Virus record (IMG/VR): IMGVR_UViG_3300029362_000615
Origin: a virus
Length of the DNA stretch: 64,000 bases
Reading direction: 5' to 3' (one strand)
In this document: positions 11,061-48,725 of the stretch, one piece after another
Layout of the letters: every line of letters starts with the position of its first letter
Position numbering within the stretch: the first letter of the stretch is position 1
Position numbers and translations under genes: made by a program
The notes under the pieces: generated by a model
The model's input: the letters and a program-made list of their open reading frames with translations, nothing else
Databases searched by the model: none
What the model was told of the DNA's origin: nothing

Positions 11061-11300
11061 ATGCCTACTATCAGAGGAAACGGACACTGTAAGGTTTGTG
11101 GTGCGCCGGCTGCTATAAATCATGAGTATTGTGATCATTGCCGCAGGATAGTAAGAATCGAAGCGCGACAGGCTTATGAAAGAAAGAGACGAGAACAGGA
11201 ACGAAGCAAAAAGCCAATCTTGACATTCAGCGATGTTATTAAACTTGCGGATGCCGAGGGATTGTCTTACGGAAAATACTGTTTAAAGTATGGGATTTGA
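11061..11300 (+). CDS. zinc-ribbon protein (CxxC...CxxC), possible DNA-binding accessory factor
   Basis: CKVCGAPAAINHEYCDHC. Immediately upstream of the recombinase gene. Confidence 0.4.
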   Translation: MPTIRGNGHCKVCGAPAAINHEYCDHCRRIVRIEARQAYERKRREQERSKKPILTFSDVIKLADAEGLSYGKYCLKYGI

Positions 11301-11310
11301 GGTGAATGTG

Positions 11311-12129
11311 ATGAGTGCAGTTGTTGAAAGAAAAGAAGAACAGATATCTAAATTGGTCTATTTTAATCCTAAACCTTCCGTTCCGGCGAAAAAGCGTGGT
11401 GTTACAAAAAGTAAGCAGAAGCGTAAGCGTAATATTTCTCCAATTAGAAGCTTGGATGATGTTCAAATGATTTCGGAATACTTCTGGGATAAAAAGCAAT
11501 ATCGCAATTGGTGTCTATTTAATGTCGGCATTGCAACTGGGTTGCGTGCTAGTGACTTGCTTAAATTGAAAGTTTCTGATATGTCTTACTGTCTTTATAA
11601 TGGAAAAATTGAGGTGGTTGAGGACGCAGGAACTTGCATCGTCGAAGAAAAGACTTCCAAATATCGTGAAATCATTCTTACTCCAGAAGCGAGAGACATC
11701 GTTGAAACGTACATTAAGATTGCAAATCTTGGATATGACGATTGGATGTTTCCGTCTCGGCAGGGGAGTTGGAAAAAGTCGTTGAGGACAAATGGTGGAG
11801 ATGGGAAAACTGGTATTCCTCATATTGCAGAACCCAAAAAAGCCGGTGATCCTATTGATGTTGATTCTTTTGCTCGTATCCTTCGTAATGCTGGTAGAGA
11901 TTTGAATCTTAATTATAAGATTGCGTCTCATTCTTGCCGTAAGACATTTGGTTATCGTGAGATGTGTCTTAATAAGGATGATAACCAGGCATTGTCTTGG
12001 ATTCAGGGTCAGTTGAATCATAGTAGTCAGGATATTACATTACGGTACGTTGGTTTTGATGAGGATAAGGCAAAAGAATATTATAAGAAGACTTTTTATG
12101 GTGTGAATACACACAGCTTGGAAGACTGA
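11311..12129 (+). CDS. tyrosine site-specific recombinase (small XerC/D-like phage integrase family)
   Basis: Catalytic signature GLRASDL (Arg), ...K..., HSCRKTF (His-x-x-Arg) and LNHSSQDITLRYV (Tyr). Confidence 0.7.
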   Translation: MSAVVERKEEQISKLVYFNPKPSVPAKKRGVTKSKQKRKRNISPIRSLDDVQMISEYFWDKKQYRNWCLFNVGIATGLRASDLLKLKVSDMSYCLYNGKIEVVEDAGTCIVEEKTSKYREIILTPEARDIVETYIKIANLGYDDWMFPSRQGSWKKSLRTNGGDGKTGIPHIAEPKKAGDPIDVDSFARILRNAGRDLNLNYKIASHSCRKTFGYREMCLNKDDNQALSWIQGQLNHSSQDITLRYVGFDEDKAKEYYKKTFYGVNTHSLED

Positions 12130-12134
12130 GGTGT

Positions 12135-12814
12135 ATGATGGCTGATACTTATATTAAGATCTGGGATACCTACGAGAGCTACTTTGAACCCCTTAGTGCT
12201 GCTGAGGTGGGGCGTCTGGTACTGGCGATGATGAAATACAAATCGTCTGGAACAGAGCCTGAACTCAACGGAAATGAGCGGTATGTGTGGCCCGCCGTGA
12301 AGAGAGATTTAGATAAAGATGCCGAATACATCGAAGGCAAGAGAATTTCTGGCAAAGCTGGTGGCTCATCAAGCAAGCGTAAGCAAAATGAAGCAAACGC
12401 AAGCAAAACCAAGCTAGAAAAAGAGAAAGAAAAGATAAGATATCGTCTTCGTCTTGTGATGAGACGACAACGACGAAACCTATCGAGGATGTTTTTCGAG
12501 AGAATATCGGGAAGCTTGGTGCTACTGGTCGAAAGGCTTTAGCAGAATATGTTGAGCGCATGGGTGATGAACTTGTACTTGCTGTGATTGGTAAGTGTTC
12601 TGATCTCGGCGGTAGCACATGGGCTTATGTGCGAAAAGCTCTGGATGAAGCAGAATCTCTTGGTTGCAAGACTGCTGATGACTATCGCCGGGCTTGTCCG
12701 ATAGGGAGTGGTCGTAATCTTAGAGTTGACAGAAAAGAATTCAGTGGCAACGATATCCTGAAAAACGCAACGAAACGTCGTCCACTAGTAAAAAGAGAGC
12801 TGGAAACAGCATAA
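12135..12814 (+). pseudogene. replisome organizer / DnaD-like replication initiation protein (DUF4373-like N-terminus plus DnaD C-terminal domain) interrupted by a frameshift
   Basis: Frame 0 through ~12417 ends GKAGGSSSKRKQNEANASK. Frame -1 from ~12419 reads PIEDVFRENIGKLGATGRKALAEYV...GGSTWAYVRKALDEAESLGCKT (DnaD domain). The shift sits at an A5 run at 12418-12422. Confidence 0.65.
12371..12420 (+). repeat. five tandem 10-bp iteron-like direct repeats AAGCAARNNN inside the replisome-organizer gene; candidate replication origin
   Basis: AAGCAAGCGT AAGCAAAATG AAGCAAACGC AAGCAAAACC AAGCTAGAAA, followed by an A-rich tract and the inverted repeat TCGTCTtgtgatgAGACGA. Confidence 0.5.
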
Positions 12815-15769: not shown

Positions 15770-16522
15770 ATGACAAGAAATGAATTGCTTGGAGCGTTAT
15801 GCTTCCCAGAATACAATTTCATTCGAGAGAATGAACATCTTGGCAAGCATATGATGTTCGTAACGGTCGGTGGCAGCCACGCTTATGGAACAAATGTTGA
15901 GGGTTCAGATCTTGACATCCGTGGTGTGGCATTAAATTCAAGAGAAGACCTTCTTGGTCTTGGCGAGTTTGAACATTATGTGGATACTCAAACTGATACT
16001 ACAATCTACAGCTTTAATAAGGCTGTGAAGCTAATGTGTAGTGGAAATCCTAATATGCTGGAGCAGCTAGGGAACGCCGATGAACTCGTTATTAGCTATA
16101 GTCCAATGACAAAGTTACTTATGGATAATAAAAAGCTGTTCCTGTCGAGGCGTGTAATCTATTCGTTTGGCGGTTTTGCAGGTAAGCTGATTCAGAAGGC
16201 TGATACGCTGGATAAAGATCCAATTTATCATGGTTCAAAGAAAATGCACAAGACGGTGATGAATGCAATTCGTGTATACCTGATGCTCTTTGACATCTTA
16301 GAAAAAGGTGAAATTAAAACTTATCGAGATAACGATCATAACTTCCTGACGCAGCTTCGCAACGGTGAATATGATTACAAAGAGATTCGTCAGCAACTGA
16401 TTCCGGCCTATGAAAGCAGATTGTCAGTTGACAAGAGTGAGACTTACCTGCCGGACAATGTTGATTGGAAGCGGGTCAACGAGCTTGTAATAACCGTAAA
16501 TGAGGAATCGTTGAAGATTTGA
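15770..16522 (+). CDS. Pol-beta-superfamily nucleotidyltransferase (COG3541/PF10127-like)
   Basis: GSHAYGTNVEGSDLDIRGV, i.e. the hG[GS]...D.D NTase signature. Confidence 0.5.
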   Translation: MTRNELLGALCFPEYNFIRENEHLGKHMMFVTVGGSHAYGTNVEGSDLDIRGVALNSREDLLGLGEFEHYVDTQTDTTIYSFNKAVKLMCSGNPNMLEQLGNADELVISYSPMTKLLMDNKKLFLSRRVIYSFGGFAGKLIQKADTLDKDPIYHGSKKMHKTVMNAIRVYLMLFDILEKGEIKTYRDNDHNFLTQLRNGEYDYKEIRQQLIPAYESRLSVDKSETYLPDNVDWKRVNELVITVNEESLKI

Positions 16523-16546: not shown

Positions 16547-17173
16547 GTGATTCTTATTAACTCTAATTTGTTAATAAATCGTGAGCAAAGTATTGCTATT
16601 GTGTGTATAATGTGCCTGCTGGCGGGGAATCTTGTATCGAAGATCAGTCCGGTAATTCAGAATCATGGTGATTCATACCTTTATAATAATAGCCCTCCGG
16701 CAGTGAGTGTAGTGCAGCAAGAGGAAAAGGAGCCAGAAGTCATTGTAGAAACCGTTACTGAGATGCGGATTGTAAACTTTGGTCAGGGCAAACATAAACT
16801 CACTGATGACGAACGTGCTCTTGCGGAGCAGATCGTTGCTTGTGAAGCAGGTGCTGACAGTTTGGAAGGCCAGATGGCTGTGGCCCAATGCCTTTATGAT
16901 TCCGCTGTACTTGATAGTCTAACCATCCAGCAGGTCTTTAAGAAGTATGGTTATAGTTCCTTATATAATAGGAAGGTGACGGCAGAGAACGAACTGGCTG
17001 TGTCTATGGTGTTTGATTACGGCGCTAAGATTTCAGACAAACCTATTCAATGGTTTGTAACCCCGGCGGCTGCTCCAGGCAGTTGGCACGAGCGCGGAGC
17101 AACCTTTGCTGGACAATTTGGCGCACACAGGTTTTATTATGACGCGAAGCTGGTTGTGGATGATGCTGAGTAA
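16547..17173 (+). CDS. membrane-anchored SleB-like cell-wall hydrolase (Hydrolase_2 domain)
   Basis: N-terminal TM segment. C-terminus LAEQIVACEAGADSLEGQMAVAQCLYDS...FAGQFGAHRFY resembles the SleB/CwlJ family. GTG start. Confidence 0.55.
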   Translation: MILINSNLLINREQSIAIVCIMCLLAGNLVSKISPVIQNHGDSYLYNNSPPAVSVVQQEEKEPEVIVETVTEMRIVNFGQGKHKLTDDERALAEQIVACEAGADSLEGQMAVAQCLYDSAVLDSLTIQQVFKKYGYSSLYNRKVTAENELAVSMVFDYGAKISDKPIQWFVTPAAAPGSWHERGATFAGQFGAHRFYYDAKLVVDDAE

Positions 17174-17228
17174 ATGGCATCATCTAAAATTTTGATAAAG
17201 CAGCACAACAAAATGGTGTGGTACATAT

Positions 17229-17262
17229 TGACGAAAACAAAAAGATGTGTATAATATATCTT
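17229..17262 (+). promoter_or_regulatory. sigma-70-type promoter TTGACG-16/17-TATAAT
   Basis: ttgacgaaaacaaaaagatgtgtataatat, upstream of gene 17298. Confidence 0.45.
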
Positions 17263-17297: not shown

Positions 17298-17624
17298 ATG
17301 AGTGAGAAAAAGGTTTTGGGAGTTATACAGGTTGAGAACTTTTTGAAGTACATAAGAAAAAAGCGAGTGTGGGTCTGTTTTATTTGCAATGGTGTGGATG
17401 TTCACATGATCTGCAAAAAGATGGACGACATTGGCGTAGAGACGCATGGGATTGTCAAAGGCATTGGATTTTTTGGAAACGAAAGTCATATTGAGTTGCG
17501 GCAAGAATGTCACGAAGTAAGGAGGGTTGAGTTTAGGCCGGGCGATAAAGAGAAAGCGTATGAGATGATATTCGATAACACCAGCGTGTTCGTATCAGAG
17601 AATCCAGAGTTGTACGGGCACTAA
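17298..17624 (+). CDS. hypothetical protein
   Basis: ORF track. Confidence 0.45.
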   Translation: MSEKKVLGVIQVENFLKYIRKKRVWVCFICNGVDVHMICKKMDDIGVETHGIVKGIGFFGNESHIELRQECHEVRRVEFRPGDKEKAYEMIFDNTSVFVSENPELYGH

Positions 17625-17644
17625 AAATATTTTTGAAAACCTAT

Positions 17645-17680
17645 TGACTTCTGTAAAGGTATCCTGTATAATATAGCTAT
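17645..17680 (+). promoter_or_regulatory. near-consensus promoter TTGACT-16/17-TATAAT embedded in a reverse-orientation copy of the 23-bp element GGTATCCTGTATAATATAGCTAT
   Basis: Directly upstream of mazF-like gene. Identical 23-mer at 42431-42453. Confidence 0.6.
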
Positions 17681-17715
17681 GGAACGGAGCTACACTATTA
17701 TAGAGGAGAAAGACT

Positions 17716-18135
17716 ATGGACAACAATATTGACCCAAAGGTCGGAGAGGTTTGGTTGGTTGATCTATCCAATGCGACAGGTCATCAGCAGCGCGGTATTC
17801 GACCGTTCGTTGTGACGAGCAACAATAAGCGCAACTTCTTTAGTCCAACAATTAAAGGGAATCCGTTGTCTTCCAGAATATACAAGCGCTCTCCGGTTCA
17901 TGTTCTACTCTCAAAGGAAGATTGTGATTTCCTAGAGGTTGATAGTATCGTTCTATGTGAAGAGACTGATACACTTAACAAAGGACAGTTCATTAAAAAA
18001 CTTGGTGTCTTGTCGGAGCGTCAGATGAATATGATCGCAATGGCAAGATGCAAGGATGAACCGTTTTTGCTTGCAGCATTCCTGAGCGGCGTACAACATA
18101 CCATGGAATTTCAGAATTTTGCCGCATTTGCTTGA
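17716..18135 (+). CDS. mazF: MazF/PemK-family endoribonuclease toxin (type II TA toxin fold), no adjacent antitoxin
   Basis: GEVWLVDLSNATGHQQRGIRPFVVTS...SPTIKGNP...DSIVLCEETDTLNKGQFIKKLGVLSERQMNMI matches the MazF/Kid consensus. Confidence 0.7.
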   Translation: MDNNIDPKVGEVWLVDLSNATGHQQRGIRPFVVTSNNKRNFFSPTIKGNPLSSRIYKRSPVHVLLSKEDCDFLEVDSIVLCEETDTLNKGQFIKKLGVLSERQMNMIAMARCKDEPFLLAAFLSGVQHTMEFQNFAAFA

Positions 18136-18188
18136 TTTTTTATAAGGTTTAATGGTACACTACATATAATAAGAAGGAGTGTGCCACT

Positions 18189-19115
18189 ATGCTTACTGAA
18201 GAAAAAATCAAAGCTTTTGCCGAAAAGTATTCTGATAGAAGCGGTGAGTTTGTTGCATCGACGATGCGTCACGTCATGGATTACGAGGCCGAGCGTGGGT
18301 ATGAGTTGTTTGACTTCACAAAAGATGATTTCGTAAAGATGTTTGCCAAATATAATTGGGTGAATTCGAGTCGTTCGTTTAAAAATGTGAAGTCAATAAT
18401 CACAGGCTACATCAAAAGTGAAAACGAAACAAGCATGTATGATCTGGCTGACTTTTCAGAGAGCGATGTAAGCGCAGATGATATGTACAATGACAGTTAT
18501 TTTGCGTCGGTTGACGAATTTGTTGACTTCTTAAATAAGTACGAAGAGCCATATCAGATTCGTATGAACGTAATTGCTGTTTTGTACTGGATTGGTCTTA
18601 CTTCCGATGAGATTTCTAATCTAACAATTAACGATGTGGATTTTGAATCTAATACCGTTCTTGATAAGACTGATGTTGACGCAAGGTTAATGGATATTAT
18701 CAAGCAATGTTACGAGATGAAACAGTATGATGCCCCCAATAAGAGCGGTTATAGAACATTTTATGTCATGAATGGCGATTATATCCTACGCAAAACGAAG
18801 GATAAACCCGGTGTAAACAGTGATCCAAAGACGTCTATAATTTCAATTCATGTCTATTTTTCGAGGTTGAACGATATCCTCGAAAAAAGGCATCATTCAA
18901 AAACCTTAGATCAAAGATATTTAGCCAGAAATTGTGAGTATATCAAGGTTTATAACTACTGTAAAACTCATCCAAAATTTAATCTTGCAGAACTTAGTTT
19001 CGGAAATGGTAAAGGTCCTCTTGCGGACATTATCGGAAGAAAGTGCAGTAAAGTTGCCTATCTTAGTTTCCGGCAAGGATATAAAGGTTGGGTTGAATAT
19101 TTCCATGAAAATTAA
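18189..19115 (+). CDS. tyrosine-recombinase-like protein, possibly degenerate (box I Arg replaced)
   Basis: RMNVIAVLYWIGLTSDEISNLTINDVDF resembles integrase box I but has Thr instead of Arg. No clean H-x-x-R motif. Confidence 0.3.
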   Translation: MLTEEKIKAFAEKYSDRSGEFVASTMRHVMDYEAERGYELFDFTKDDFVKMFAKYNWVNSSRSFKNVKSIITGYIKSENETSMYDLADFSESDVSADDMYNDSYFASVDEFVDFLNKYEEPYQIRMNVIAVLYWIGLTSDEISNLTINDVDFESNTVLDKTDVDARLMDIIKQCYEMKQYDAPNKSGYRTFYVMNGDYILRKTKDKPGVNSDPKTSIISIHVYFSRLNDILEKRHHSKTLDQRYLARNCEYIKVYNYCKTHPKFNLAELSFGNGKGPLADIIGRKCSKVAYLSFRQGYKGWVEYFHEN

Positions 19116-19120
19116 AAACA

Positions 19121-19144
19121 GGGGGCTTCGGCCCCTTCATTTTA
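19121..19144 (+). terminator. Rho-independent terminator (GGGGC-TTCG-GCCCC + TTCATTTT)
   Basis: GC stem with UUCG tetraloop and T-tract immediately after the 19115 stop. Confidence 0.7.
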
Positions 19145-19150
19145 ACATGC

Positions 19151-19172
19151 TAACTATATAACACAGGATACC
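19151..19172 (+). promoter_or_regulatory. 22-bp conserved promoter/operator element (forward) TAACTATATAACACAGGATACC
   Basis: One of 5 forward copies located 20-30 nt upstream of gene starts. Confidence 0.5.
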
Positions 19173-19186
19173 TATTAGAAAGGGAG

Positions 19187-21406
19187 ATGCAGATGAGAAC
19201 ACTTTTACTGTTCCGTGGAGCACCCGGTTGCGGGAAGTCCACCTATATTAAAGAGCATAATCTTGAGCAGTACGTATTGAGTGCTGATACACTTCGCCTT
19301 ATGTGCCAGAGCGCACAGGAAACACCTGATGGGCAGATGGAGATTTCTCCGCAGAATGATGATGTTGTATGGGAGATGCTTTTCAAACTGCTTGAGGTGC
19401 GGATGAGCCATGGCGAGTTTACTGTGATTGATGCAACGAATTCCAAGACGGTCGAAATGAATTGTTATAAGAATCTTGCAAAACAGTATCGTTATCGGAT
19501 GTATGTTATTGATATGACGGACCTTCCGATCGAGGAATGCAAACGAAGAAACGCTCAGAGAGAATGGCTAAAGCGAGTTCCTGAAGCGGCTATTGATAAG
19601 ATGTACGCTCGGTTTGCTACTCAAAAAGTTCCTTCTGGCGTGACAGTTCTTCCTTCTACTACGGATGTGATGTCCGATTTGAACTACTGCCCGAATGACT
19701 TTAACCAGTGGAAAAAGATACATATCATCGGTGATATTCATGGCTGCTATACCTGCTTGAGTGAATACCTTGGTGAGATGAAGGACGACGAGCTTTATAT
19801 CTTCGTTGGTGATTATCTCGATCGTGGCATCGAAAACGTTGAGGTATTCAAGTTCTTGTGTGATGTTGTAAATAACAACCGCAAGAATGTGATCCTTTTG
19901 GAAGGGAACCACGAGCATTGGCTGAACAAGTGGGGGCATGATAAACCGGTTCAAAGTGAAGAGTTTGCAAACTACACTCGTCCGCAGCTCTTTAAAGCCG
20001 GTATTGACAAGAACACTGCTCGTAAGATCTATTCCAGAGTCGGCCAGTGTGTCTACTTTGAGTATGATGGTAAGCGGTATTTCGTAAGTCACGGTGGTCT
20101 GAGCTATCTTCCTTATTTTCTTCCGTTCGTGTCTGCGGATCAGATGATTAAAGGCGTAGGCCGCTATCCTGATATACTGACCGTGGCTGAGTCTTGGGAA
20201 AAGTCGATGCCGGATAGCTATATTCAGATCTTCGGCCATCGAAATGTACAGGATGTTCCTATTGATATGGGTCATCGGTGCTACAATCTTGAAGGCAAAA
20301 TCGAGTTTGGTGGATATCTTCGTTGTGTGGAGCTTGAACACGGTCAGCCTATCAAATGCGTAGAAACCAAGAATGATGTATTCCGAAAAGAGGAGCCAAA
20401 GACTGAAACTGCCGTTGAAATGAAAACTGAGTTCGATAACGCAGAACTTGTTAGTAAGATGCGTCAAAGCAAATATGTGTTTGAGAAGCGATTCGGAGAT
20501 ATTTCTTCTTTCAACTTCTCTCGTGAAGCATTTTATAAGAAGCACTGGGATGAGGTTTCTACCAAAGCAAGAGGGTTGTTCATTAACACAAAGACGAATA
20601 AGATTGTAGCTCGAAGCTATGATAAGTTCTTTGCGGTTGATGAGCGGAATGAAACGAGAATTGGAAACCTACAGAACACTTTGAAGTTCCCGGTGACTGC
20701 ATATCTAAAAGAGAACGGATTTCTTGGTATCATTTCGTATGATGCAGAACAGGATGGTCTGTTCATTGCAAGTAAATCCACTCCTGATGGGCCTTTTGCA
20801 GATATGTTCCGAAAGATTCTCATGGATACGACTTCTGATGAAGATCGTAAGAATCTGAAAGAAGTTGCAAAAGAGAATGGCTCCATCATCTTCGAGGTGA
20901 TTGATCCTGTGAATGATGCACATATCATCGAATATAAGAAACCGCACATTGTTTTGCTGGATATTATTGCAAATGATATGAATTTCAGTGTAATGGATTA
21001 TGATGATTTGAAGCGTGTAGCCGAGAAGTGTCATCTGCAGATTAAGGAGAAGGTTAAAACCTTTGAGAACTGGAGTGAATTCTATCCTTGGTACGAAGAA
21101 GTCATGAACGAGAACTATCTGCATCATGGTTTTGAACACGTTGAAGGCTTTGTTTTGCGAGACAGCAATAATTTCATGTTTAAGCTGAAGCTTCTGTATT
21201 ATAAGCACTGGAAGTTCTTGCGTGGTGTCATGCAGAGCGTTCAAAAACGTGGCTATTATGAAAATACCGCAAAGTTGTTTACTGCCGAGGATAACCTGTT
21301 CTATGGTTGGATGCGTGAACAACGAGAGAAAGATCAAGAGTCTTTCTGCAAGAAGGGTATTATTCAGCTGCGGAATGAGTTCTACGCAAGTCAGCAGAAG
21401 AGCTAA
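19187..21406 (+). CDS. pnkp: bacterial-type polynucleotide kinase-phosphatase-ligase (Pnkp) RNA/DNA end-healing and sealing enzyme
   Basis: N-terminal P-loop GAPGCGKST, a central calcineurin-like phosphatase (GDIHG, GDYLDRG, GNHE), and a C-terminal nucleotidyltransferase with KENG lysine motif. Second ATG at 19193 has better RBS spacing. Confidence 0.7.
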   Translation: MQMRTLLLFRGAPGCGKSTYIKEHNLEQYVLSADTLRLMCQSAQETPDGQMEISPQNDDVVWEMLFKLLEVRMSHGEFTVIDATNSKTVEMNCYKNLAKQYRYRMYVIDMTDLPIEECKRRNAQREWLKRVPEAAIDKMYARFATQKVPSGVTVLPSTTDVMSDLNYCPNDFNQWKKIHIIGDIHGCYTCLSEYLGEMKDDELYIFVGDYLDRGIENVEVFKFLCDVVNNNRKNVILLEGNHEHWLNKWGHDKPVQSEEFANYTRPQLFKAGIDKNTARKIYSRVGQCVYFEYDGKRYFVSHGGLSYLPYFLPFVSADQMIKGVGRYPDILTVAESWEKSMPDSYIQIFGHRNVQDVPIDMGHRCYNLEGKIEFGGYLRCVELEHGQPIKCVETKNDVFRKEEPKTETAVEMKTEFDNAELVSKMRQSKYVFEKRFGDISSFNFSREAFYKKHWDEVSTKARGLFINTKTNKIVARSYDKFFAVDERNETRIGNLQNTLKFPVTAYLKENGFLGIISYDAEQDGLFIASKSTPDGPFADMFRKILMDTTSDEDRKNLKEVAKENGSIIFEVIDPVNDAHIIEYKKPHIVLLDIIANDMNFSVMDYDDLKRVAEKCHLQIKEKVKTFENWSEFYPWYEEVMNENYLHHGFEHVEGFVLRDSNNFMFKLKLLYYKHWKFLRGVMQSVQKRGYYENTAKLFTAEDNLFYGWMREQREKDQESFCKKGIIQLRNEFYASQQKS

Positions 21407-21523: not shown

Positions 21524-21608
21524 GGGGATATGGTGAAATTGGCAGCCACGCTTGATTCAAACTCAAGTGTCGAAAGACGTATCGGTTCAAATCCGATTAT
21601 CCCTACCA
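21524..21608 (+). tRNA. tRNA-Leu (anticodon CAA), type II with long variable arm, CCA encoded
   Basis: Acceptor GGGGATA/TATCCCT, anticodon loop TTCAAAC, T-loop GGTTCAAATCC. Confidence 0.8.
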
Positions 21609-21808
21609 TGAAGATCAGTTGTTCTAGCTCGTTCGGGGATTGGCCGTACATTGGCGACCGGAAAGACGTCATACCGGTAAAGGACGTCAAGCCAGACAAG
21701 AAGAGAAATAAGGTGTAAGCCGACTAGCTATCGGATAAATACTCTTCGATTCGCCAGAAAACTAGAATGTAAAACGAATGGTTGGCTGTTTCTGATCTTC
21801 TTTTATAT

Positions 21809-21891
21809 GCGCCCGTGGTGGAATCGCAGACACAGGAGACTTAAGATCTTCTGCCAGAGATGGCGTGCGGGTTCAAGTCCCGCCGGGCGCA
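21809..21891 (+). tRNA. tRNA-Leu (anticodon TAA), type II, no encoded CCA
   Basis: Acceptor GCGCCCG/CGGGCGC, anticodon loop CTTAAGA, T-loop GGGTTCAAGTCCC. Confidence 0.8.
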
Positions 21892-21898
21892 TTTGTAT

Positions 21899-21974
21899 CT
21901 GGGCGTAGCGAAGTTGGTATCGCACCTGTTTTGGGAACAGGGGACCGCAAGTTCAAACCTTGTCGCTCAGACCA
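21899..21974 (+). tRNA. tRNA-Pro (anticodon TGG), CCA encoded
   Basis: C1-G72 acceptor pair, anticodon loop TTTGGGA, T-loop AGTTCAAAC. Confidence 0.8.
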
Positions 21975-22061
21975 GCCCGAAAGGGCAAGGAAAAATTGTC
22001 CTCACATTATTCCCGGCTCTCTGGAAACGGAGCAGTGTGACGTAGTAAGCTGGGTATATGA

Positions 22062-22132
22062 TGCGCCATCGCCAAGCGGTAAGGCAGAGGACTTTGACTC
22101 CTCCATCGCAGGTTCGACCCCTGCTGGCGCAA
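22062..22132 (+). tRNA. tRNA-Gln (anticodon TTG), U1-A72 first pair
   Basis: Acceptor TGCGCCA/TGGCGCA, D-arm GCCAAGCGGTAAGGC, anticodon loop CTTTGAC, T-loop GGTTCGACC. Confidence 0.8.
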
Positions 22133-22135
22133 TAT

Positions 22136-22217
22136 GCGGATATGGTGGAATGGCAGACACGCCAGATTTAGGATCTGGTGCTTCGGCGTGTGGGTTCGAT
22201 GCCCACTATCCGCACCA
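22136..22217 (+). tRNA. tRNA-Leu (anticodon TAG), type II, CCA encoded
   Basis: Acceptor GCGGATA/TATCCGC, anticodon loop TTTAGGA, T-loop GGGTTCGATGCCC. Confidence 0.8.
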
Positions 22218-22316
22218 CGGTCATAGAATGGTTGCGTACCGTTTGTTGATCTCCTTTACTATTATTCCCAGCTCGCTCGTAAGAGTGCAGTAGTGCTTTG
22301 TAAGCTGGGTTTACAT

Positions 22317-22391
22317 GCAGCGGTCGTATAACGGTTAGTACATCAGCCTTCCAAGCTGAGGATGAGGTTTCGACTACCTTTCGCTGCTCCA
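22317..22391 (+). tRNA. tRNA-Gly (anticodon TCC), CCA encoded
   Basis: Acceptor GCAGCGG/TCGCTGC, anticodon loop CTTCCAA, T-loop GGTTTCGACTACC. Confidence 0.8.
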
Positions 22392-22581
22392 ATTTCGTAT
22401 GGGTAGGGATTTTAAGCGGTCAGTCCCGGCCGCGCCTGTGCGAAATACCACCCTGAAAGGGGCGAGATATAGGAAATGTGCATCGCTGTTATTCCTTCCT
22501 CGTCTATATGATATAGATGCAATAGTGTTTTATAAGGAAGGTGCCCAGTTGAATAGTTGCAGCTGTTTAACTGGTTTTTAT

Positions 22582-22658
22582 GGGATAGTAGCTCAGCTGG
22601 TCAGAGCTGGCGGCTCATAACCGCTTGGTCGGGAGTTCAAATCTCTCCTGTCCCACCA
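22582..22658 (+). tRNA. tRNA-Met or tRNA-Ile2 (anticodon CAT), elongator type, CCA encoded
   Basis: Acceptor GGGATAG/CTGTCCC with G1-C72 pair, anticodon loop CTCATAA, T-loop GGGAGTTCAAATCTCTC. Confidence 0.8.
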
Positions 22659-22761: not shown

Positions 22762-22783
22762 TAGCTATATAATACAGGATATG
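22762..22783 (+). promoter_or_regulatory. 22-bp conserved promoter/operator element (forward) TAGCTATATAATACAGGATATG
   Basis: Upstream of the methyltransferase gene. Confidence 0.5.
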
Positions 22784-22793
22784 AAAAGGAGGA

Positions 22794-24789
22794 ATGAAAA
22801 CTGAAGCATTACGGAGATATTACACAACTTCATGGGTGGCAGATTGAACCGGTTTCCTGTATCACAGGAGGCAGTCCATGCCAAGATTTGAGTCAGGCCG
22901 GTAAACGTGAAGGTTTGGCTGGTGAACGCTCTGGATTGTTCCTTGAAATGATTCGTGTGATTACAGAAATGAGGGAGGCCACTAATGGAGAATATCCAAA
23001 ATTCGCAATCTGGGAAAATGTCAGAGGAGCTTTCAGCTCAAGCAAAGGTGAAGACTTCAGATGTGTGTTGGAAAGATTTGCACGCATTGTCGAGCCAGAC
23101 GTTTCAATTCCTCGACCTTCAGGGAAGAACGGAAAGTGGGCAAAATCTGGAGCGATTTCCGGTAATGGATGGTCTCTTGCATGGAGATTGTTCGACGCTA
23201 AATACTGGGGAGTCGCCCAGCGTCGCCAGAGAATCGCGCTTGTCATGGATTTTGGAGGACAACGTGCCTCAGAAATTCTATTTGAGCGCACGAGCATGTC
23301 AGGGGATTCTTGTGAGAGCATCCCGGCGTGGAAAACCTTTGCCCGAACTCCTGAAACAAGCGTTGCTGGATATGATCGAATGGTGGAATCCAGGAACTCT
23401 GTCACAGGTGGTGCAGAAAGTGAAGGAACAAGAAGGTCTGGAAGAGAAGGAATTGGACGAGTATTGGAGTCAGACCATCGAGAGACTTCGACTCAATGCA
23501 CAGAACCTGCAGCCTACACTCTAAAAATCCGTTCTGGATGTGAAGGTGGCGGTAAAGGCGCTCTGGTTCAAACTGAATTGAGCGCAACGATTTCTACGTT
23601 ACAAGACCAGACGCTGATTTGCTTGGCAGAAAATCCCTCCTTACATAATTTAAAACAAAAGATTTCGCCGGTGGTGTTTGAGAGCCACAGTCAGGACGCT
23701 CGATACACTCAGCAGAGTGATACAAGTCCGACTTGTACTGCTCAGTGGGGAACTGGTGGCAATAATATGCCACTGGTCATTGAGAAGAAAGCCTTTGCGA
23801 TGCAACGCATTGGTGAATACAAGGAAAGTGAACAGGCTAGTACGATGAAATCTCGTGACTACAAGGACGCTACTGACCTGATTACAGAAAAAGAATCGAA
23901 GAATCTACGATGGATTGTTCGCCGTTTGACTCCTTTGGAGGATGAACGGCTTCAGGGGTTTCCTGAAATTATGGAGGCAAATATTACAGAAATGACAAAA
24001 GATGAATATATTGCTTTCAACTTAGCTACGGGTCAGATTATCGCAGATTGTGAGAATGGAAAAGTGTATACCACAAAAGGTCCCGGCGGAAACATTCTTA
24101 AAGAACCAAAAGAACTTAGTGGGACAATTATTAAAGGTTATCGAGTTGTTAGCATCCGAAATGGTGATGTAAAAAAGCAATGTAGGGTTCATCGAGTTAT
24201 ATGGATTGCTAAAAATGGAATTATTCCAGATGGTCTGGTTGTTGACCATATCAATAACGACAAGCTAGATAATCGAATTAGTAACCTTCAGCTATTAACC
24301 GCAAAGGACAACTCTACTAAAGCTTCAAAGGATGGCCTGTATTTATCTGGAAATGAAAACCCTGTGACAGTTCTTCCAGAAGAAAAACGTATTGAAGTAG
24401 CACTTATGTATCAAACAGGAGAATTTACAATGCGCCAGCTTGCTGAAAGATACGGAATCAGTAAAAGCCGTGTCCAGCAAATTGTAAAAACATATGGATG
24501 GACCGATATTGGCGAGTGGATTGACGAGAATGGTAAAAAGCACAAGCCAGCCGATTCTCCTCGGTACAAGGCGCTCGGCAATTCGATTGCTTTGCCTCAG
24601 TGGTATTGGATTTGCCAGAAGATGAAACCGTATATTGGTGAAAATCCTACGCTTGGCAGTCTTTTCGATGGAATCGGTGGCTTTCCGCTTGTCTTTGAAA
24701 GTACGTATGGTGATGGTACTGCTATCTGGGGATCTGAAATTGAACCGTTTTGTGTTGCGGTGACAAAGAAGCATTTTCCAGAAGATTAA
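22794..24789 (+). CDS. cytosine-5 DNA methyltransferase with circularly permuted motif order (III-IV-VI-VIII-TRD-IX-[HNH+HTH insertion]-X-I-II); apparent 1-nt frameshift after the ATG
   Basis: Motifs GDITQ, GGSPCQ, ENV, QRRQRIALV, RRLTPLEDERLQGFPE, YKALGNSIA, then LFDGIGGF and SEIEP..KHFPE at the C-terminus. ATG 22794 is in frame only if one A of the A4 run at 22797-22800 is removed. The long ORF in the given sequence runs 22798-24789. Confidence 0.6.
24136..24312 (+). other. HNH (HNH_3-type) endonuclease domain inserted in-frame between methyltransferase motifs IX and X, followed by a helix-turn-helix segment to about 24558
   Basis: GYRVVSIRNGDVKKQCRVHRVIWIAKNGIIPDGLVVDHINNDKLDNRISNLQLLTAKDN, then LPEEKRIEVALMYQTGEFTMRQLAERYGISKSRVQQIV. 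Confidence 0.65.
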
Positions 24790-27601: not shown

Positions 27602-27614
27602 AATTTTTGCCTTT

Positions 27615-27636
27615 AACTAAGTAACACAGGATACCA
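27615..27636 (+). promoter_or_regulatory. 22-bp conserved promoter/operator element (forward) TAACTAAGTAACACAGGATACC
   Basis: Upstream of gene 27671. Confidence 0.45.
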
Positions 27637-40089: not shown

Positions 40090-42420
40090 GTGGCAGATAA
40101 GAAATTTAATGAAAATATGATCCGTTGCTACATCAGGATAAAACGAGTCTTTTATCCGAAAGATGGGAGGGAGGTGGAGCCCGGCGGCTTCGCCACTTTC
40201 TCCGCCGAGGTGGTAAAAGTCAAGCAGGGAAATCCTATCATGAGCCGATACAGCGACCTCCGGCTAAAAGGCAACGTTCCTAGCCTCGATATGAATAAAA
40301 CTTATTCGTTCTGTGGTGAATATGTTCATCATGAAAAGTTTGGTGATCAGTATAAAATTATCTACATGAATGAGTTTCAAGAGATTACTGACCCGGAAGA
40401 ACAAAAAAGCTTTCTCCGTTTTATTTTGACAGACCATCAGTTTGAGATGCTTTACGAAGCATTCGACAATCCGTATGAAATTATCAAGAATGGTGACATC
40501 AAGGCTCTTTGTACTATTAGCGGTATTACGGAAGGTCGAGCACAAAAGATCATTGACTCTTTTGAACGCAACATTGATAACAGTGAAGCGTACACGAAAC
40601 TGATTGAATACGGTTTGACTCCCAGTGCTATTGAAAAGCTTGTTCGTCAGTATCACGGTGCAGACATTCTGGTAAGAAAGATTGAGGAGAATCCTTACGT
40701 CCTGATCGATGATGTGTATGGTATCGGCTGGAAAAAAGCTGACGCTCTTGCTTTGAACATGGGTCTAAAACACAATTCGCAATTCAGAATCGAAGCTTAC
40801 GTCATGCATTTTCTTGCCGCCCGTGCCGAAGAAGGCAACTCTATCATTCCGGCAAATCAGACAATCAATAGCTGTATCAAGGAACTTGATTTGAACGAGG
40901 GCGACCAAGAAGTTATCAAAAGGGCACTTTTCCATCTGCATGATGTCCGTGAAACACTTTGGTGGAGTGATGACCGTCAGGAATTTGCTTTAACTAGAGT
41001 GTGGAATCTTGAAGATAAAATCGCAAAGGAAATCAAGCGACTGGCGGATGCACCTGTTGAGCCGATTGGTCGAAACATTGATGCAGCAATCAATGAAGCC
41101 GGGAATGCGCTTGGCATCGAGTATACTGAGGAGCAAAGAGATGCTATTAAAAAGGTATGCTCTAGCAACGTCTGTATCTTAACAGGCTACGGCGGAACTG
41201 GCAAAAGTACCGTTGTAGCTGGTGTCTTAAAGGTTCTTCGTGGTAAGTCTTTCGCTCAGACTGCGCTATCTGGTCGTGCTGCAGCTCGTATGCAGGAGAT
41301 TACTGGTCAGGACGGTAAGACCATCCATCGTCTTCTTGGTTATGATATTGAGAACGGTGGGTTTATTCACGATAAGGACAATCCTCTGGATGAGGACATT
41401 ATCATTCTGGATGAGACCTCTATGGTTGGAGCTCAGTTGTTCTATGACTTGATTCAGGCAATCGAAACCGGCAAGCGATTCATTATGATTGGTGATGACG
41501 GTCAGCTTGAGAGTATCGGTATGTGCAACATCTTTAAGGATATGCTTGCATCTAAGGTTGTTCCTGTGGCTCGTTTGACTAAGATCCATCGTCAGGCAGC
41601 TAAGTCTGCAATTATCACGGAGAGTATCAAAGTTCGCAATGCTACGCAGTTGGTTCCTTATGGCTGGGCTGGTAGTGAGATTCGTGGTGAACTTCGTGAT
41701 TTGGAGCTTGATATCTATAAGGACGCAAGTGAATCGTTCAACCACATCATCAATCAGTACCGTACCTTATATAATAAGGTAGGGAATGATAGTGCGAAGA
41801 TTCAGATTGTACTTCCACAGAAGCTGCGTGGCAGTATCTGCACCTACGAGGTCAATAATGCTATTCAGGAAATTGTAAATCCGAGTCATGGTCAGGCAGA
41901 AGCAAAGGTTACAATCTACGGTGATGGCAAGGATAGAGTGTACACTCTGCGTGAAGGCGATCAGGTTATCATCAACAAGAACAACTATGAGCTTCACACA
42001 TACAATCTCAAGACAAAGAAAAAGGAAGAGAAGTGTCCGGTGTTTAACGGAAACCGTGGCATTATCCGAAAGATTGAGAGTAGTTTTATTCTGGTTGATT
42101 TTGACCAGTGGGGCACGATCTTTATTCCTCATTATTTTGGTGGGAATAACATCTGGGCAACGCTTGAACTTGCTTATGCTCTGAGTTGTCATAAACTACA
42201 GGGCAGTGAGGCTCCGTATGTGATTGTTGGTATGGACAATTCCGCATACATGATGTTGACGAGAGAATGGCTCTATACGGCCATCACTCGTGCCAAGAAG
42301 TATTGTGTGATTTGCGCCGAAACTCATGCTCTTGATCGGGCTGTAAAGACTTCGAGAGTTCCATATAAGCGGACGTTCCTGAAGGAATTTTTGCAGAAAG
42401 AATTTTCAGAAAAGCATTGA
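40090..42420 (+). CDS. recD: RecD2-like SF1 ATP-dependent DNA helicase
   Basis: Walker A GYGGTGKST, IILDETSMV, SCHKLQGSEAPYVIV, AITRAKK. Confidence 0.7.
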   Translation: MADKKFNENMIRCYIRIKRVFYPKDGREVEPGGFATFSAEVVKVKQGNPIMSRYSDLRLKGNVPSLDMNKTYSFCGEYVHHEKFGDQYKIIYMNEFQEITDPEEQKSFLRFILTDHQFEMLYEAFDNPYEIIKNGDIKALCTISGITEGRAQKIIDSFERNIDNSEAYTKLIEYGLTPSAIEKLVRQYHGADILVRKIEENPYVLIDDVYGIGWKKADALALNMGLKHNSQFRIEAYVMHFLAARAEEGNSIIPANQTINSCIKELDLNEGDQEVIKRALFHLHDVRETLWWSDDRQEFALTRVWNLEDKIAKEIKRLADAPVEPIGRNIDAAINEAGNALGIEYTEEQRDAIKKVCSSNVCILTGYGGTGKSTVVAGVLKVLRGKSFAQTALSGRAAARMQEITGQDGKTIHRLLGYDIENGGFIHDKDNPLDEDIIILDETSMVGAQLFYDLIQAIETGKRFIMIGDDGQLESIGMCNIFKDMLASKVVPVARLTKIHRQAAKSAIITESIKVRNATQLVPYGWAGSEIRGELRDLELDIYKDASESFNHIINQYRTLYNKVGNDSAKIQIVLPQKLRGSICTYEVNNAIQEIVNPSHGQAEAKVTIYGDGKDRVYTLREGDQVIINKNNYELHTYNLKTKKKEEKCPVFNGNRGIIRKIESSFILVDFDQWGTIFIPHYFGGNNIWATLELAYALSCHKLQGSEAPYVIVGMDNSAYMMLTREWLYTAITRAKKYCVICAETHALDRAVKTSRVPYKRTFLKEFLQKEFSEKH

Positions 42421-42445
42421 CAATTATATTGGTATCCTGTATAAT
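42417..42445 (+). promoter_or_regulatory. perfect consensus sigma-70 promoter TTGACA-17-TATAAT, overlapping the reverse-orientation 23-bp element
   Basis: The helicase stop TGA lies inside the -35 box. Confidence 0.65.
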
Positions 42446-42490
42446 ATAGCTATAAAAAGTCTCCACCTCGGAGGCTTAAAGTTCTCTCTT

Positions 42491-42512
42491 TAGCTATATA
42501 ATGCAGGATACG
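42491..42512 (+). promoter_or_regulatory. 22-bp conserved element (forward) TAGCTATATAATGCAGGATACG, forming a large inverted repeat with the copy at 42431-42453
   Basis: The two arms differ at 2-3 positions. Confidence 0.5.
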
Positions 42513-42523
42513 GGAAAGAAATG

Positions 42524-42555
42524 GCTTGCTCGTAACGACAAGCCTTTCTTTATTA
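42524..42555 (+). terminator. intrinsic terminator/attenuator hairpin GGCTTGcTCG-TAA-CGACAAGCC plus TTTCTTTATT, overlapping the 4-codon mini-ORF MACS (42521-42535)
   Basis: 9-bp stem with T-tract. The stop codon of the mini-ORF forms the hairpin loop. Confidence 0.5.
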
Positions 42556-42581
42556 GCTATAACTATATAACACAGGATACG
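42555..42581 (+). promoter_or_regulatory. conserved element (forward) TAGCTATAACTATATAACACAGGATACG upstream of ligase
   Basis: Fifth forward copy. Confidence 0.45.
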
Positions 42582-42593
42582 CAAGGAGGCTTT

Positions 42594-43922
42594 ATGACAG
42601 ATAAAGAGCTCATAGGTAAGCTTGATGCGATGGTTAAGGCATTGCAGAAAGCAAAGAAGAAGACGGACAAGACCCGCATTTTGCTGGATGCACGTAAGGA
42701 TTTTGGAGATGAAGCTGACGAGCTGATGGCATTTTTCCGATTCCTGCTTGACCCGGCAATTGTTACTGGTTTGTCTGATGCAAAGATCAATAAGAAGGTG
42801 ACTGCAAGACCAGATATCGACGTTCAGTATCTCAGCTGCGGATACCTTTATATTATGGGTGCTGGTCACAATACCGGCTCTGACGCATCTATCGCAACAA
42901 TCCAGAATTATTTACATAAAAATCCTGAGTACGAAGAGTTTCTAAAGCGACTGTTCACTAAGAACCTGCCGATTGGAGTCGAGGCGGCTACTGTCAATAA
43001 GGTGTACGGCGAAGAGATTATTCCTGTTTGGGAGGTTCAGCAGGGATACCCGATTGATAAATACAAATTCAAAAATGGTGAACTTATTTTTGCCTCGCGC
43101 AAATTGAATGGAGTGCGCGGAACTTACTTCCGAGGGAACATTATTTCTCGTCAGGCACAGAAGTTCGATGGGCTTGACCATATTGTTAAGGATATCGAGG
43201 AAATCATCGGTACGGATTACGCAGTTGATGGTGAGTTGATTCGCAAAAATGTAGACGGTTTAACCGATGGTCAAAATTTCCGCGAAACTATTTCTATCCT
43301 CAATAGTGATGGTAACGATAAAAGCCTGATTAAGTTTGTGGTTTTTGATATTGTGCCAGTTAATGAATTCGAGAAAGACGCTTGTACTGAAAAGTATTCT
43401 GTAAGAAAAGCTCGGTTACTTGAATTGGCTGATAATCTTGAACAATGGGAAGATTTTGAACTTAGACCGGCAAATATCGAAGTTGTTCCTATGGTTTATG
43501 AAGGTACGGACGTGAATGAAATCCCGAAGTGGCTGGATTATGCAGTTGAACACGATTGGGAAGGCTTGGTCGTAAATCGTCAGGTTCCGTATCGTCGGAC
43601 TCGTCATAACGGCTGTTTGAAAGTCAAGCGTTTTTATACTGTTGATCTGCGAATCACCGCGATTGAGGAGGGTCAGAACCGTCTGGCTGGTACGATGGGA
43701 GCTCTTGTTGTGGATTATAAGGGTAACGAACTTCGTGTTGGTTCCGGTTTTGATGATGCTACGAGAGCTACCGTTTGGGCGAATCCTGATAATTACATCG
43801 GTAAGATTGTGGAATGTAAGTACAAAGAGGTCACGATGGACAAAAAGACTGGCCTTGAGTCTCTGCAATTCCCGACGTTTGTACGATTCCGAGATGATAA
43901 GAACGAAGTAAGCTACGGCTAA
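42594..43922 (+). CDS. lig: ATP-dependent DNA ligase (phage type; motif I KLNGVR)
   Basis: KLNGVRG (motif I), DGELI (III), EGLVV (IV), LKVKRF (V). Confidence 0.7.
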   Translation: MTDKELIGKLDAMVKALQKAKKKTDKTRILLDARKDFGDEADELMAFFRFLLDPAIVTGLSDAKINKKVTARPDIDVQYLSCGYLYIMGAGHNTGSDASIATIQNYLHKNPEYEEFLKRLFTKNLPIGVEAATVNKVYGEEIIPVWEVQQGYPIDKYKFKNGELIFASRKLNGVRGTYFRGNIISRQAQKFDGLDHIVKDIEEIIGTDYAVDGELIRKNVDGLTDGQNFRETISILNSDGNDKSLIKFVVFDIVPVNEFEKDACTEKYSVRKARLLELADNLEQWEDFELRPANIEVVPMVYEGTDVNEIPKWLDYAVEHDWEGLVVNRQVPYRRTRHNGCLKVKRFYTVDLRITAIEEGQNRLAGTMGALVVDYKGNELRVGSGFDDATRATVWANPDNYIGKIVECKYKEVTMDKKTGLESLQFPTFVRFRDDKNEVSYG

Positions 43923-47419: not shown

Positions 47420-47432
47420 GAGGTTTACATAA

Positions 47433-48714: not shown

Positions 48715-48725
48715 GGAGTGATTGC

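Follow-up and report, generated by a model that had tools for sequence, protein, structure and literature searches.

The stretch of DNA analysed here, 64,000 nucleotides of IMG/VR virus record IMGVR_UViG_3300029362_000615, is referred to below as the window, and the gene under study is an open reading frame (ORF) encoding 139 amino acids that we have designated mazF. A gene encoding 108 amino acids, designated up108, ended 91 nt before it (gap 17625-17715), and a gene encoding 308 amino acids, designated the sroF-like gene, began 53 nt after it. The gap upstream of mazF contained a promoter whose -10 element is overlapped by a repeated 21-bp box, and the sequence GAGGAG (17703-17708) 7 nt 5′ of the mazF ATG; the spacer between mazF and the sroF-like gene contained the hexamer TACATA. 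The coordinates of these and of other features are given in Table 1.

Searches with the mazF product revealed a match to the Pfam hidden Markov model PF02452 (PemK_toxin) with E 2.1e-19 and 70.1 bits, well above the curated cut-off of 23.1 bits, and to PHROG 1936 ('MazF-like growth inhibitor') with E 7.5e-22. In a sequence search of the PDB the best matches were the MazF proteins of Staphylococcus aureus and Bacillus subtilis (E 5e-14), with which the phage protein shared 30-35% identity. An AlphaFold (AF2) model of the protein, for which an alignment of 16 family members was the input, had a pLDDT of 82.8, and a Foldseek search with it recovered the SH3-like barrel fold of MazF/Kid, with S. 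aureus and B. subtilis MazF again on top (E 1e-10, TMt 0.82-0.85). These matches and the fold model bore out the sequence-only reading of this locus, which had placed the product among the MazF/PemK-family toxins. That reading had also seen the family signature along the whole length of the protein, which was too generous, as the profile spans only residues 8-109. Residues 110-139, outside the canonical domain, form a conserved, family-specific C-terminal extension of 30 amino acids in which D114-E115-P116-F117-L118 were invariant and for which the model predicted two additional helices.

Alignment of phage MazF with the S. aureus and B. subtilis proteins showed that the loop motifs G.QQ.G.RP, N..FSPT, P.HV and DS....E were kept. 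R29 aligned with R25 of B. subtilis MazF and was invariant in the 16 family members, and position 52 (S52 in the window), the equivalent of B. subtilis T48, was Ser or Thr in 11/11 aligned members; we take R25 and T48 to be the catalytic pair of the B. subtilis enzyme. The catalytic Arg/Thr pair, whose absence the sequence-only reading had named as a refutation, was thus present (R29, S/T52). The mazF ORF was intact in all 78 relatives compared, over which the ratio of non-synonymous to synonymous substitution (dN/dS) was 0.016, against 0.10-0.12 for three neighbouring genes; the flanks of mazF among close relatives shared only 80-90% nucleotide identity. Judged by sequence and model, the ORF is a real MazF/PemK endoribonuclease of active appearance, and the conserved catalytic residues together with the very low dN/dS argue that the RNase activity itself is under selection.

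More than 80 near-identical copies of mazF were found in IMG/VR, on phage contigs of about 110-140 kb, and more distant homologues (60-78% identity) on contigs of related phages, about 125 kb in length; the samples with relatives include human gut metagenomes. Ten lineages were compared, namely the window, L082, L085, L088 and L101-L106, between which MazF identity was 60-78%. The order up-gene (101-127 amino acids), mazF, sroF-like gene (308-348 amino acids) was the same in 10/10 lineages. The genes outside this unit differed between lineages, and even close relatives varied upstream of the up-gene. No terminator was predicted in the 53-nt spacer between mazF and the sroF-like gene, and terminator-like hairpins flank the unit; we infer that the two genes are co-transcribed. 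The sequence-only reading had described mazF as solitary, which holds in that no canonical antitoxin accompanies it, but not in the wider sense, as it has two constant neighbours.

Comparison of the 308-amino acid product with PF22822 (MrpR_N_CB) gave E 6e-4. The same domain was found in the orthologues from L082 and L088 at 32.2 and 34.2 bits, above the cut-off of 27, and a match to MrpR_C_cat was precomputed for close relatives. A profile of four orthologues searched against the PDB had as its best match 9RD5 (E 1.2e-3, residues 8-246, about 240 residues), the structure of phi3T SroF in complex with its operator (bioRxiv 10.1101/2025.11.27.690993). In phages of the SPbeta family the master repressor is MrpR/SroF (formerly YopR), a protein with a tyrosine-recombinase fold whose catalytic function has been lost (PMC10516654). 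At the box-I position, to which this comparison is confined, the catalytic Arg was lost: the window, L082 and L085 have GLT and L088 has G where Tn1549 Int has GLR. MrpR has V137/S138 at the corresponding recombinase positions (PMC10516654). From these similarities the 308-amino acid protein is predicted to be a master repressor of the MrpR/SroF family.

The mazF promoter, TTGACT-17-TATAAT, had 11/12 matches to the consensus. Three TTGAC-N17-19-TATAAT sites were observed in the 64 kb, compared to 0.25 expected. Its hexamers were invariant in 34 haplotypes, among which the 5′ half of the spacer varied freely, and distant relatives had a TTGAC(A/T) -35 element at the same place before mazF. The phylogenetic footprint and the rarity of such sites indicate that the promoter is real, and by its sequence it is a strong sigma-A-type promoter. 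The sequence-only reading had recognised this near-consensus promoter correctly, apart from a spacer given as 16/17 nt that is 17 nt long.

The -10 element of the mazF promoter lies within a 21-bp box (GTATCCTGTRTWATATAGYTA) that was found in seven copies in the window, compared to none expected (0 in 100 shuffles). Two of these copies belong to the unit, one at the mazF promoter and one, inverted, just after the sroF-like gene, and at both sites the core of the box was invariant in 78 close relatives although adjacent bases varied. L082, L085, L088 and L106 had a different repeated sequence at the same two places. The repressors of lineages with different boxes were 22-27% identical, which parallels the divergence of the boxes. 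Significant box pairs were found in 5/10 lineages, each of them lineage-specific. Taken together, these sequence patterns suggest that the 21-bp box is probably the operator of the SroF-like repressor. Since the -10 element sits within this repeated box, transcription of mazF is probably regulated rather than constitutive. The earlier description of mazF as a constitutively transcribed orphan was therefore at odds with the seven-copy box and with a repressor gene lying 53 nt downstream, with no terminator between, in all ten lineages.

A box at the promoter of a toxin gene that is followed by the gene for a DNA-binding autoregulator resembles the logic of a type II toxin-antitoxin operon, and it would fit an arrangement in which the SroF-like repressor, or a host MazE, neutralises the phage MazF. 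A variant is that phage MazF acts as a sponge for host MazE and thereby frees the host MazF; in phi3T, SroA and SroB act by binding MazE, and phage MazF is closest to chromosomal MazFs of Bacillota. We consider this group of explanations distinctly unlikely, as the repressor is a 308-amino acid protein without a MazE-like tail, and as mazF, with its catalytic residues kept and its dN/dS very low, appears to be selected for RNase activity itself. Two scans of genome contigs returned no relatives. The C-terminal RQGY of the 308-amino acid protein was considered as a possible MazE-like tail and rejected, as the conserved Y..W..Y/F aligns with the Tyr region of the recombinases.

Three of the box copies lie in a control region (42397-42594) before an ATP-dependent DNA ligase gene, together with a consensus promoter and two hairpins. 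The promoter at 42417 and the mazF promoter were 75% identical over 57 nt. The ligase gene probably starts at ATG 42594 and not at 42501, and the region may serve as the main lytic switch or give rise to a short transcript.

The spacers between mazF and the sroF-like gene were 50-76 nt long and largely unalignable across the ten lineages. TACATA (UACAUA in the RNA) was present in 10/10 of them and was the sole hexamer common to all ten. As the automatic MAFFT alignment misplaced it in three rows, a site-anchored comparison and folding of each sequence separately were used. When the spacers were anchored on TACATA, its six positions were conserved in 10/10 lineages and flanking positions in at most 7/10. 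The chance of finding TACATA in a shuffled spacer was 0.01-0.04 per lineage, and a haplotype with a 2-bp deletion among the close relatives still recreated the hexamer. U^ACAUA is the sequence cleaved by the MazF enzymes of B. subtilis, Listeria and S. aureus (bioRxiv 10.64898/2026.08.06.743204), and by analogy with them phage MazF may have the same specificity. The hexamer is better explained as a MazF site than as an operator because its conservation tracks the conserved MazF and not the fast-evolving repressor.

In the window, UACAUA lies within a predicted RNA hairpin in which the 5′ arm, UGGUACACU, pairs with AGUGUGCCA. The loop holds UACAUA at its 5′ edge and most of the Shine-Dalgarno (SD) sequence AAGGAG (18174-18179), and the last bases of the SD, together with the stretch from SD to AUG in the repressor gene, are covered by the 3′ arm. 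The hairpin had a dG of -11.2 (z -2.6), and the duplex between the arm and the ribosome-binding site (RBS) had -13.4 kcal/mol (P 0.0005). In the window, L101 and L106 this duplex was -13 to -14 kcal/mol, with P <= 0.0015 versus shuffled arms, and two compensatory pair changes were found between the window and L101. The hairpin is best described as a lineage-specific elaboration. The TGGTACACT element is, from its sequence, a candidate internal promoter, which is an alternative compatible with the hairpin.

Table 1. Features of the mazF locus and related sites in the window (64,000 nt).
Feature	Position	Strand	Description
Terminator-like hairpin	17157-17186		Precedes the up108 promoter
up108 promoter-like site, TTGACG-16-TATAAT	17228-17255	+	11/12 matches, without the 21-bp box
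up108	17298-17624	+	108 amino acids; precedes mazF; PH-like/YojF-like beta fold (predicted)
mazF promoter, TTGACT-17-TATAAT	17644-17672	+	-35 at 17644-17649, -10 at 17667-17672
Box copy 1, GTATCCTGTRTWATATAGYTA	17659-17679	+	21 bp; overlaps the -10 of the mazF promoter
Upstream ORF (uORF), 14-17 amino acids (MERSYTIIEEKDYG...)	17679-17732	+	Begins 7 nt after the mazF -10, overlaps the mazF start codon
mazF	17716-18135	+	139 amino acids, ATG start
Predicted RNA hairpin	18153-18186	+	5′ arm UGGUACACU (18153-18161) pairs with AGUGUGCCA (18178-18186)
TACATA (UACAUA in RNA)	18161-18166	+	mazF-sroF spacer; predicted MazF self-cleavage site
sroF-like gene	18189-19115	+	308 amino acids; MrpR/SroF-like integrase-fold protein, predicted master repressor
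GC-rich hairpin, AGGGGGCTTCGGCCCCT	19120-19136	+	Terminator-like; end of the unit
Box copy 2	19151-19171	-	Inverted; after the repressor gene and before the Pnkp-Rnl1 gene
Box copy 3	22762-22782	-	Upstream of the methylase/HNH ORF
Box copy 4	27614-27634	-	Upstream of the AAA_24 replication-module gene
Second strong promoter, TTGACA-17-TATAAT, with box copies 5-7	42417-42580	+	Upstream of the DNA ligase gene
Box copy 5	42432-42452	+	Within the second strong promoter
Box copy 6	42491-42511	-	Before the DNA ligase gene
Box copy 7	42560-42580	-	Before the DNA ligase gene

Analysis of the motif across the phage revealed TACAT 111 times on the sense strand, compared to 80 expected, and TACATA 36 times on the sense strand versus 13 on the antisense strand. 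The phage mRNAs thus do not avoid UACAU(A), which was over-represented and not depleted; densities of UACAU per gene were uninformative. Protection of phage mRNAs by motif avoidance was rejected, as UACAU was enriched, no strand-specific depleted motif was found and the depleted k-mers were palindromic.

This enrichment also bears on the roles proposed in the sequence-only reading, namely host shut-off, abortive infection against competitors or addiction. mazF would then be a free-standing toxin, made early in infection from a strong promoter, and would need no antitoxin because the host is doomed. Solitary MazF-like genes with no annotated antitoxin are indeed present in 76 GenBank phage records, apparently virulent phages among them, and the PHROG category 'host takeover', the strength of the promoter and a variable, moron-like zone upstream are all in keeping with such a role. 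It is nevertheless rather unlikely: indiscriminate activity would hit the UACAU(A)-enriched mRNAs of the phage itself, a repeated box lies at the promoter, mazF is fixed beside the repressor gene in 10/10 lineages and the phage is apparently temperate. No result specifically favoured host shut-off, abortive infection or addiction.

No MazE/AbrB-like domain was found in the neighbours of mazF by Pfam or PHROG. Six-frame ORFs of the 64-kb window were searched against the MazE proteins of B. subtilis, S. aureus and Escherichia coli, Kis, SPbeta YosL and a MazE-C profile, and nothing was found (best BLASTP E >= 0.12, best HMM E >= 1.5). There was also no AimX-, YosL- or MazE-C-like segment anywhere in the window, no ORF for an antitoxin of the ribbon-helix-helix (RHH) type and no meaningful match to the PADLOC defence-system models. 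The absence of a MazE- or AbrB-like antitoxin on either side, as first described, thus extends to the whole 64 kb. An RNA-based antitoxin, offered in the same description as an alternative, found no backing: within 14-23 kb there were no tandem repeats, the only two being trivial ones elsewhere, and an Rfam scan of the window returned tRNAs only. The lack of a tandem repeat array and of an Rfam family near mazF speaks against a type III RNA antitoxin. The gap before mazF, described as 90 nt containing no small ORF, was 91 nt and holds two, neither of them a credible antitoxin gene. The first is the uORF of Table 1, near the expected transcription start, whose ATG was kept and whose length varied among close relatives, and which was absent in L082; the second is an antisense ORF of 58 amino acids (17595-17771). 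Both were rejected as antitoxins because close relatives have them in differing lengths or cut short, so that neither is conserved as a coding sequence.

The up108 gene has a promoter-like site of its own, in which the -10 element was invariant and the -35 element nearly so in 40 haplotypes. Homologues of up108 were confined to this phage group and are fast-evolving, and its product had no Pfam, PHROG, PADLOC or NCBIfam match. A fold model of moderate confidence was PH-like/YojF-like and not AbrB, RHH, Phd or helix-turn-helix (HTH), and up108 was rejected as an antitoxin on the ground of its fold. Several observations would still suit an ordinary type II pair, in which the up108 product binds and neutralises MazF and the prophage is stabilised or the lysogen defended. 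The up-gene stands before mazF in 10/10 lineages with no terminator between them; its product evolves much faster than the toxin (18-29% identity across lineages, versus 60-78% for MazF), as antitoxins often do; and the up-gene mRNA is somewhat enriched in UACAUA (8 observed in the up-gene ORFs versus 4.5 expected, P 0.015). We regard such a pair as unlikely. Besides the lack of a DNA-binding or known antitoxin fold and of any database match, the tight coupling of toxin and antitoxin expected of a type II system was not seen, as the 91-nt gap and a separate consensus promoter lie before mazF and translation of the two genes is not coupled. No cognate antitoxin gene of the AbrB or RHH type was adjacent, and a gene order shared within a single group of phages does not show that the products interact. 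We regard the up108 product as a candidate partner of MazF, unproven and of a non-canonical kind.

The explanation that we favour, and to which we attach an even chance, is that the phage carries its own MazF in a lysogeny operon and that this MazF cuts its own bicistronic mRNA. mazF would be the promoter-proximal gene of a mazF-sroF unit, to which the small up-gene may also belong, and the SroF-like repressor would autoregulate the unit through the box over the mazF -10. By analogy with phi3T and SPbeta, the phage would supply MazF itself instead of releasing the MazF of the host. MazF would then cut phage and host transcripts that bear UACAUA, so that lysogeny is favoured or maintained and related superinfecting phages are perhaps restricted. 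It would also cut its own mRNA at the UACAUA of the spacer and so uncouple the mazF and repressor cistrons; in the lineage of the window this cut would additionally detach the 5′ hairpin arm that covers the ribosome-binding region of the repressor gene. A canonical antitoxin is perhaps unnecessary because a 6-nt specificity, control by the operator and self-cleavage of the mRNA would limit the activity. Otherwise the inhibitor of MazF may be a host MazE, the up108 product or the product of a gene outside the window. Only tentatively do we propose a more specific form of this explanation, in which the antitoxin-less MazF is an enzyme devoted to RNA processing in the lysis-lysogeny switch: the cut in the spacer would unmask the RBS of the repressor gene and limit the synthesis of MazF, UACAUA-rich lytic transcripts would be degraded, and the dependence on MazF seen in SPbeta-type phages would have been internalised.

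A number of findings weigh against a lysogeny operon that processes its own mRNA. The 308-amino acid protein scored 20.8 bits on MrpR_N_CB, below the cut-off of 27, so that its assignment is remote, and the PDB profile match of the repressor was only E 1e-3. The cleavage specificity is extrapolated from homologues that are only 30-35% identical. The RBS-masking hairpin was significant in 3/10 lineages, marginal in two more and absent or weak in five, and UACAUA was predicted to be paired in L082 and L088. TGGTATTCT, beside TACATA, also fits an extended -10 element (TGnTACACT), and the conserved block may therefore be partly an internal promoter. TACATA was absent from the mazF and sroF ORFs of the ten lineages, which was not significant (1.7-2.8 expected, P(0) 0.3-0.5 per gene class), and 5/10 lineages had no significant box pair. 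The search for an antitoxin covered 64 kb of a genome of about 135 kb, about 70 kb of which lies outside the window. Additionally, the phage polymerase was only about 31% identical to that of the nearest isolates, and the analogy with SPbeta may not carry over.

The closest parallel to the unit is the sro (yopM-R) operon of SPbeta and phi3T. In phi3T the activity of host MazF is needed for lysogeny, and MazF is blocked by the MazE mimics AimX and YosL (PMC10769878). The repressor operon opens with the genes for SroA and SroB, which activate MazF by binding MazE (bioRxiv 10.64898/2026.08.06.743204). MazF leaves the sro operon mRNAs uncut (10.1101/2025.11.27.690993), and MrpR has a binding site close to yopM, the gene with which its own operon begins (PMC10516654). 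The sro operon, like the unit described here, ends with an integrase-fold repressor of the MrpR/SroF family. Those phages have a long repeated operator (SPBRE/phi3TRE), dispersed but also present at the promoter of the operon itself, and the 21-bp box, its candidate counterpart here, is distributed in a similar way. Both encode a MazF-related function just upstream of the repressor. Transcripts of SPbeta and phi3T are enriched in UACAU, as are those of this phage. The two systems differ in that the MazF of SPbeta and phi3T is that of the host and the operon encodes the MazE binders SroA/SroB, whereas here mazF itself occupies that position. The similarity between the repressors is remote, the boxes are unrelated in sequence and the hosts are probably anaerobic gut bacteria. 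No arbitrium/AimR-like match was found among the ORFs scanned and no AimX/YosL mimic in the window; homologues of SroA/SroB were not specifically searched for.

Phage MazF resembles NdoA/EndoA of B. subtilis and MazF of S. aureus in fold and in its catalytic Arg and hydroxyl residue, and the UACAUA motif cut by these enzymes is the conserved hexamer of the phage mazF-sroF spacer. It differs from the chromosomal genes in having no mazE upstream and no alr/rsb neighbourhood, in its own promoter carrying a phage box and in the 30-amino acid extension. Genes of PHROG 1936 in other Bacillota phages, for example Psychrobacillus phage Perkons, Lactobacillus phage Satyr and Enterocloster phage PMBT24, are likewise of the MazF family and have no annotated antitoxin, but they are <= 39% identical and lie near tail/lysis genes, early genes or Spx and not beside an MrpR/SroF-like repressor; no published function for them was found in the literature searched. 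The type II systems mazEF, pemIK and kis-kid share with the unit the toxin family and a promoter that is probably under a DNA-binding protein of the same unit. In those systems an AbrB-/RHH-type antitoxin gene lies immediately upstream, usually overlapping, and this is absent from the phage unit.

MazF toxins, antitoxin-less MazF-like genes of phages and the connection between MazF and SPbeta were already known. The literature searched yielded no phage MazF that forms part of an SroF-type repressor unit and has a conserved cleavage motif between the cistrons. The gene is hard-wired before a predicted master repressor in a phage group that is widespread in the human gut, the 21-bp box is the likely operator of this uncultured group, and the MrpR/SroF repressor type would be extended from Bacillus to anaerobic gut bacteria. 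The papers on phi3T and SPbeta show that host MazF tips these phages to lysogeny and leave the route unexplained; the explanation favoured here, if true, would supply a testable mechanism, in which the repressor mRNA is processed and lytic mRNAs are selectively degraded. mazF would then help the phage to choose between dormancy and killing and would not be a free-running poison. It would also be an example of a toxin of the toxin-antitoxin type acting as a regulatory RNase without an antitoxin, in agreement with recent evidence for a precise and non-lethal regulatory role of Bacillota MazF (bioRxiv 10.64898/2026.08.06.743204).

The phage itself, of about 135 kb, is apparently temperate, as judged from the repressor, an integrase-family gene and relatives on contigs of up to 349 kb, which suggests that the longest of these are integrated prophages. 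The gut metagenomes and NrdD point to anaerobic gut bacteria as hosts. The window encoded replication genes like those of SPbeta (a PolIII-alpha-type polymerase, RecJ, RecD2 and AAA_24), and relatives carry YorF; a megablast search against GenBank phages returned no match.

Next after the integrase-family gene (279 amino acids, PF00589 E 2e-15) comes a DUF6291 gene (window 11290-12542). The same pair adjoins the up-mazF-sroF unit in L101 (1-1125), and L088 likewise has a gene of the integrase family upstream; these genes may be further components of a lysogeny module. For comparison, SPbeta has YopP/SroD, which we take to be integrase-like. A divergent XRE-type HTH_3 gene lies just upstream of the up-gene in L102 (1543-1806), L103 (1612-1833) and L105 (1568-1816), where it may encode a second, Cro/CI-like regulator; the window has none. 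About 3 kb upstream of the up-gene, in L089-L096, GmrSD_N, Lar_restr_allev and RlaP were present or absent between near-identical phages, marking a zone of variable cargo.

The unit also lies within an island of RNA-repair and tRNA genes (window 15770-16522, 19187-21406 and 21524-22658), made up of an RlaP nucleotidyltransferase, a 739-amino acid kinase-phosphatase-Rnl1 ligase fusion (Pnkp-like) and seven tRNAs (Leu x3, Pro, Gln, Gly and Met). Adjacency of this island to mazF was kept in some lineages only. MazF makes 2′,3′-cyclic-phosphate and 5′-OH ends, which match the substrates of Pnkp and Rnl1. MazF might thus work together with RlaP, Pnkp-Rnl1 and the tRNA cluster in a cut-and-repair system in which the ends are healed, for RNA processing or for self-protection in the lytic cycle. 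In the window the Pnkp-Rnl1 fusion immediately follows the unit, RlaP lies 1.2 kb before it and the seven tRNA genes follow; a Pnkp-Rnl1 neighbour is also present in L082 and L085, and Pnkp without the ligase in L104. As the adjacency was lost in L088, L102, L103 and L105, RlaP is variably present among close relatives, and RNA-repair sets of phages are usually explained as counter-defence against anticodon nucleases of the host (PMC7824862), we hold this to be very improbable.

A direct repeat of 53 nt with 74% identity (22006-22058 and 22261-22313) was found between tRNA genes of the cluster. An ORF of 633 amino acids (22888-24789) encoded a fragment of a C5 cytosine DNA methylase (profile positions 74-131), an HNH_3 endonuclease and an HTH; a homing endonuclease may have inserted into a methylase gene here, or the start of the ORF may be mis-called. 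A nucleotide-metabolism block (46186-50921) encoded ThyX, DUF3310, LemA and NrdD with an ATP-cone, and this anaerobic ribonucleotide reductase suggests that the host is a strict anaerobe. The gene for the MazE mimic YosL lies just before the nrd genes in SPbeta, and there was no YosL-like ORF at that position in the window. Several palindromic sites were under-represented, namely GATC (130 versus 307 expected, z -13), CCTGG (4/42), CCAGG (7/27) and TGGCCA (0/12); ATTAAT (1/20), TTCGAA (2/19), AGTACT (0/10), GGTCC and GGACC were further depleted in the window. This depletion of palindromes looks like avoidance of restriction sites.

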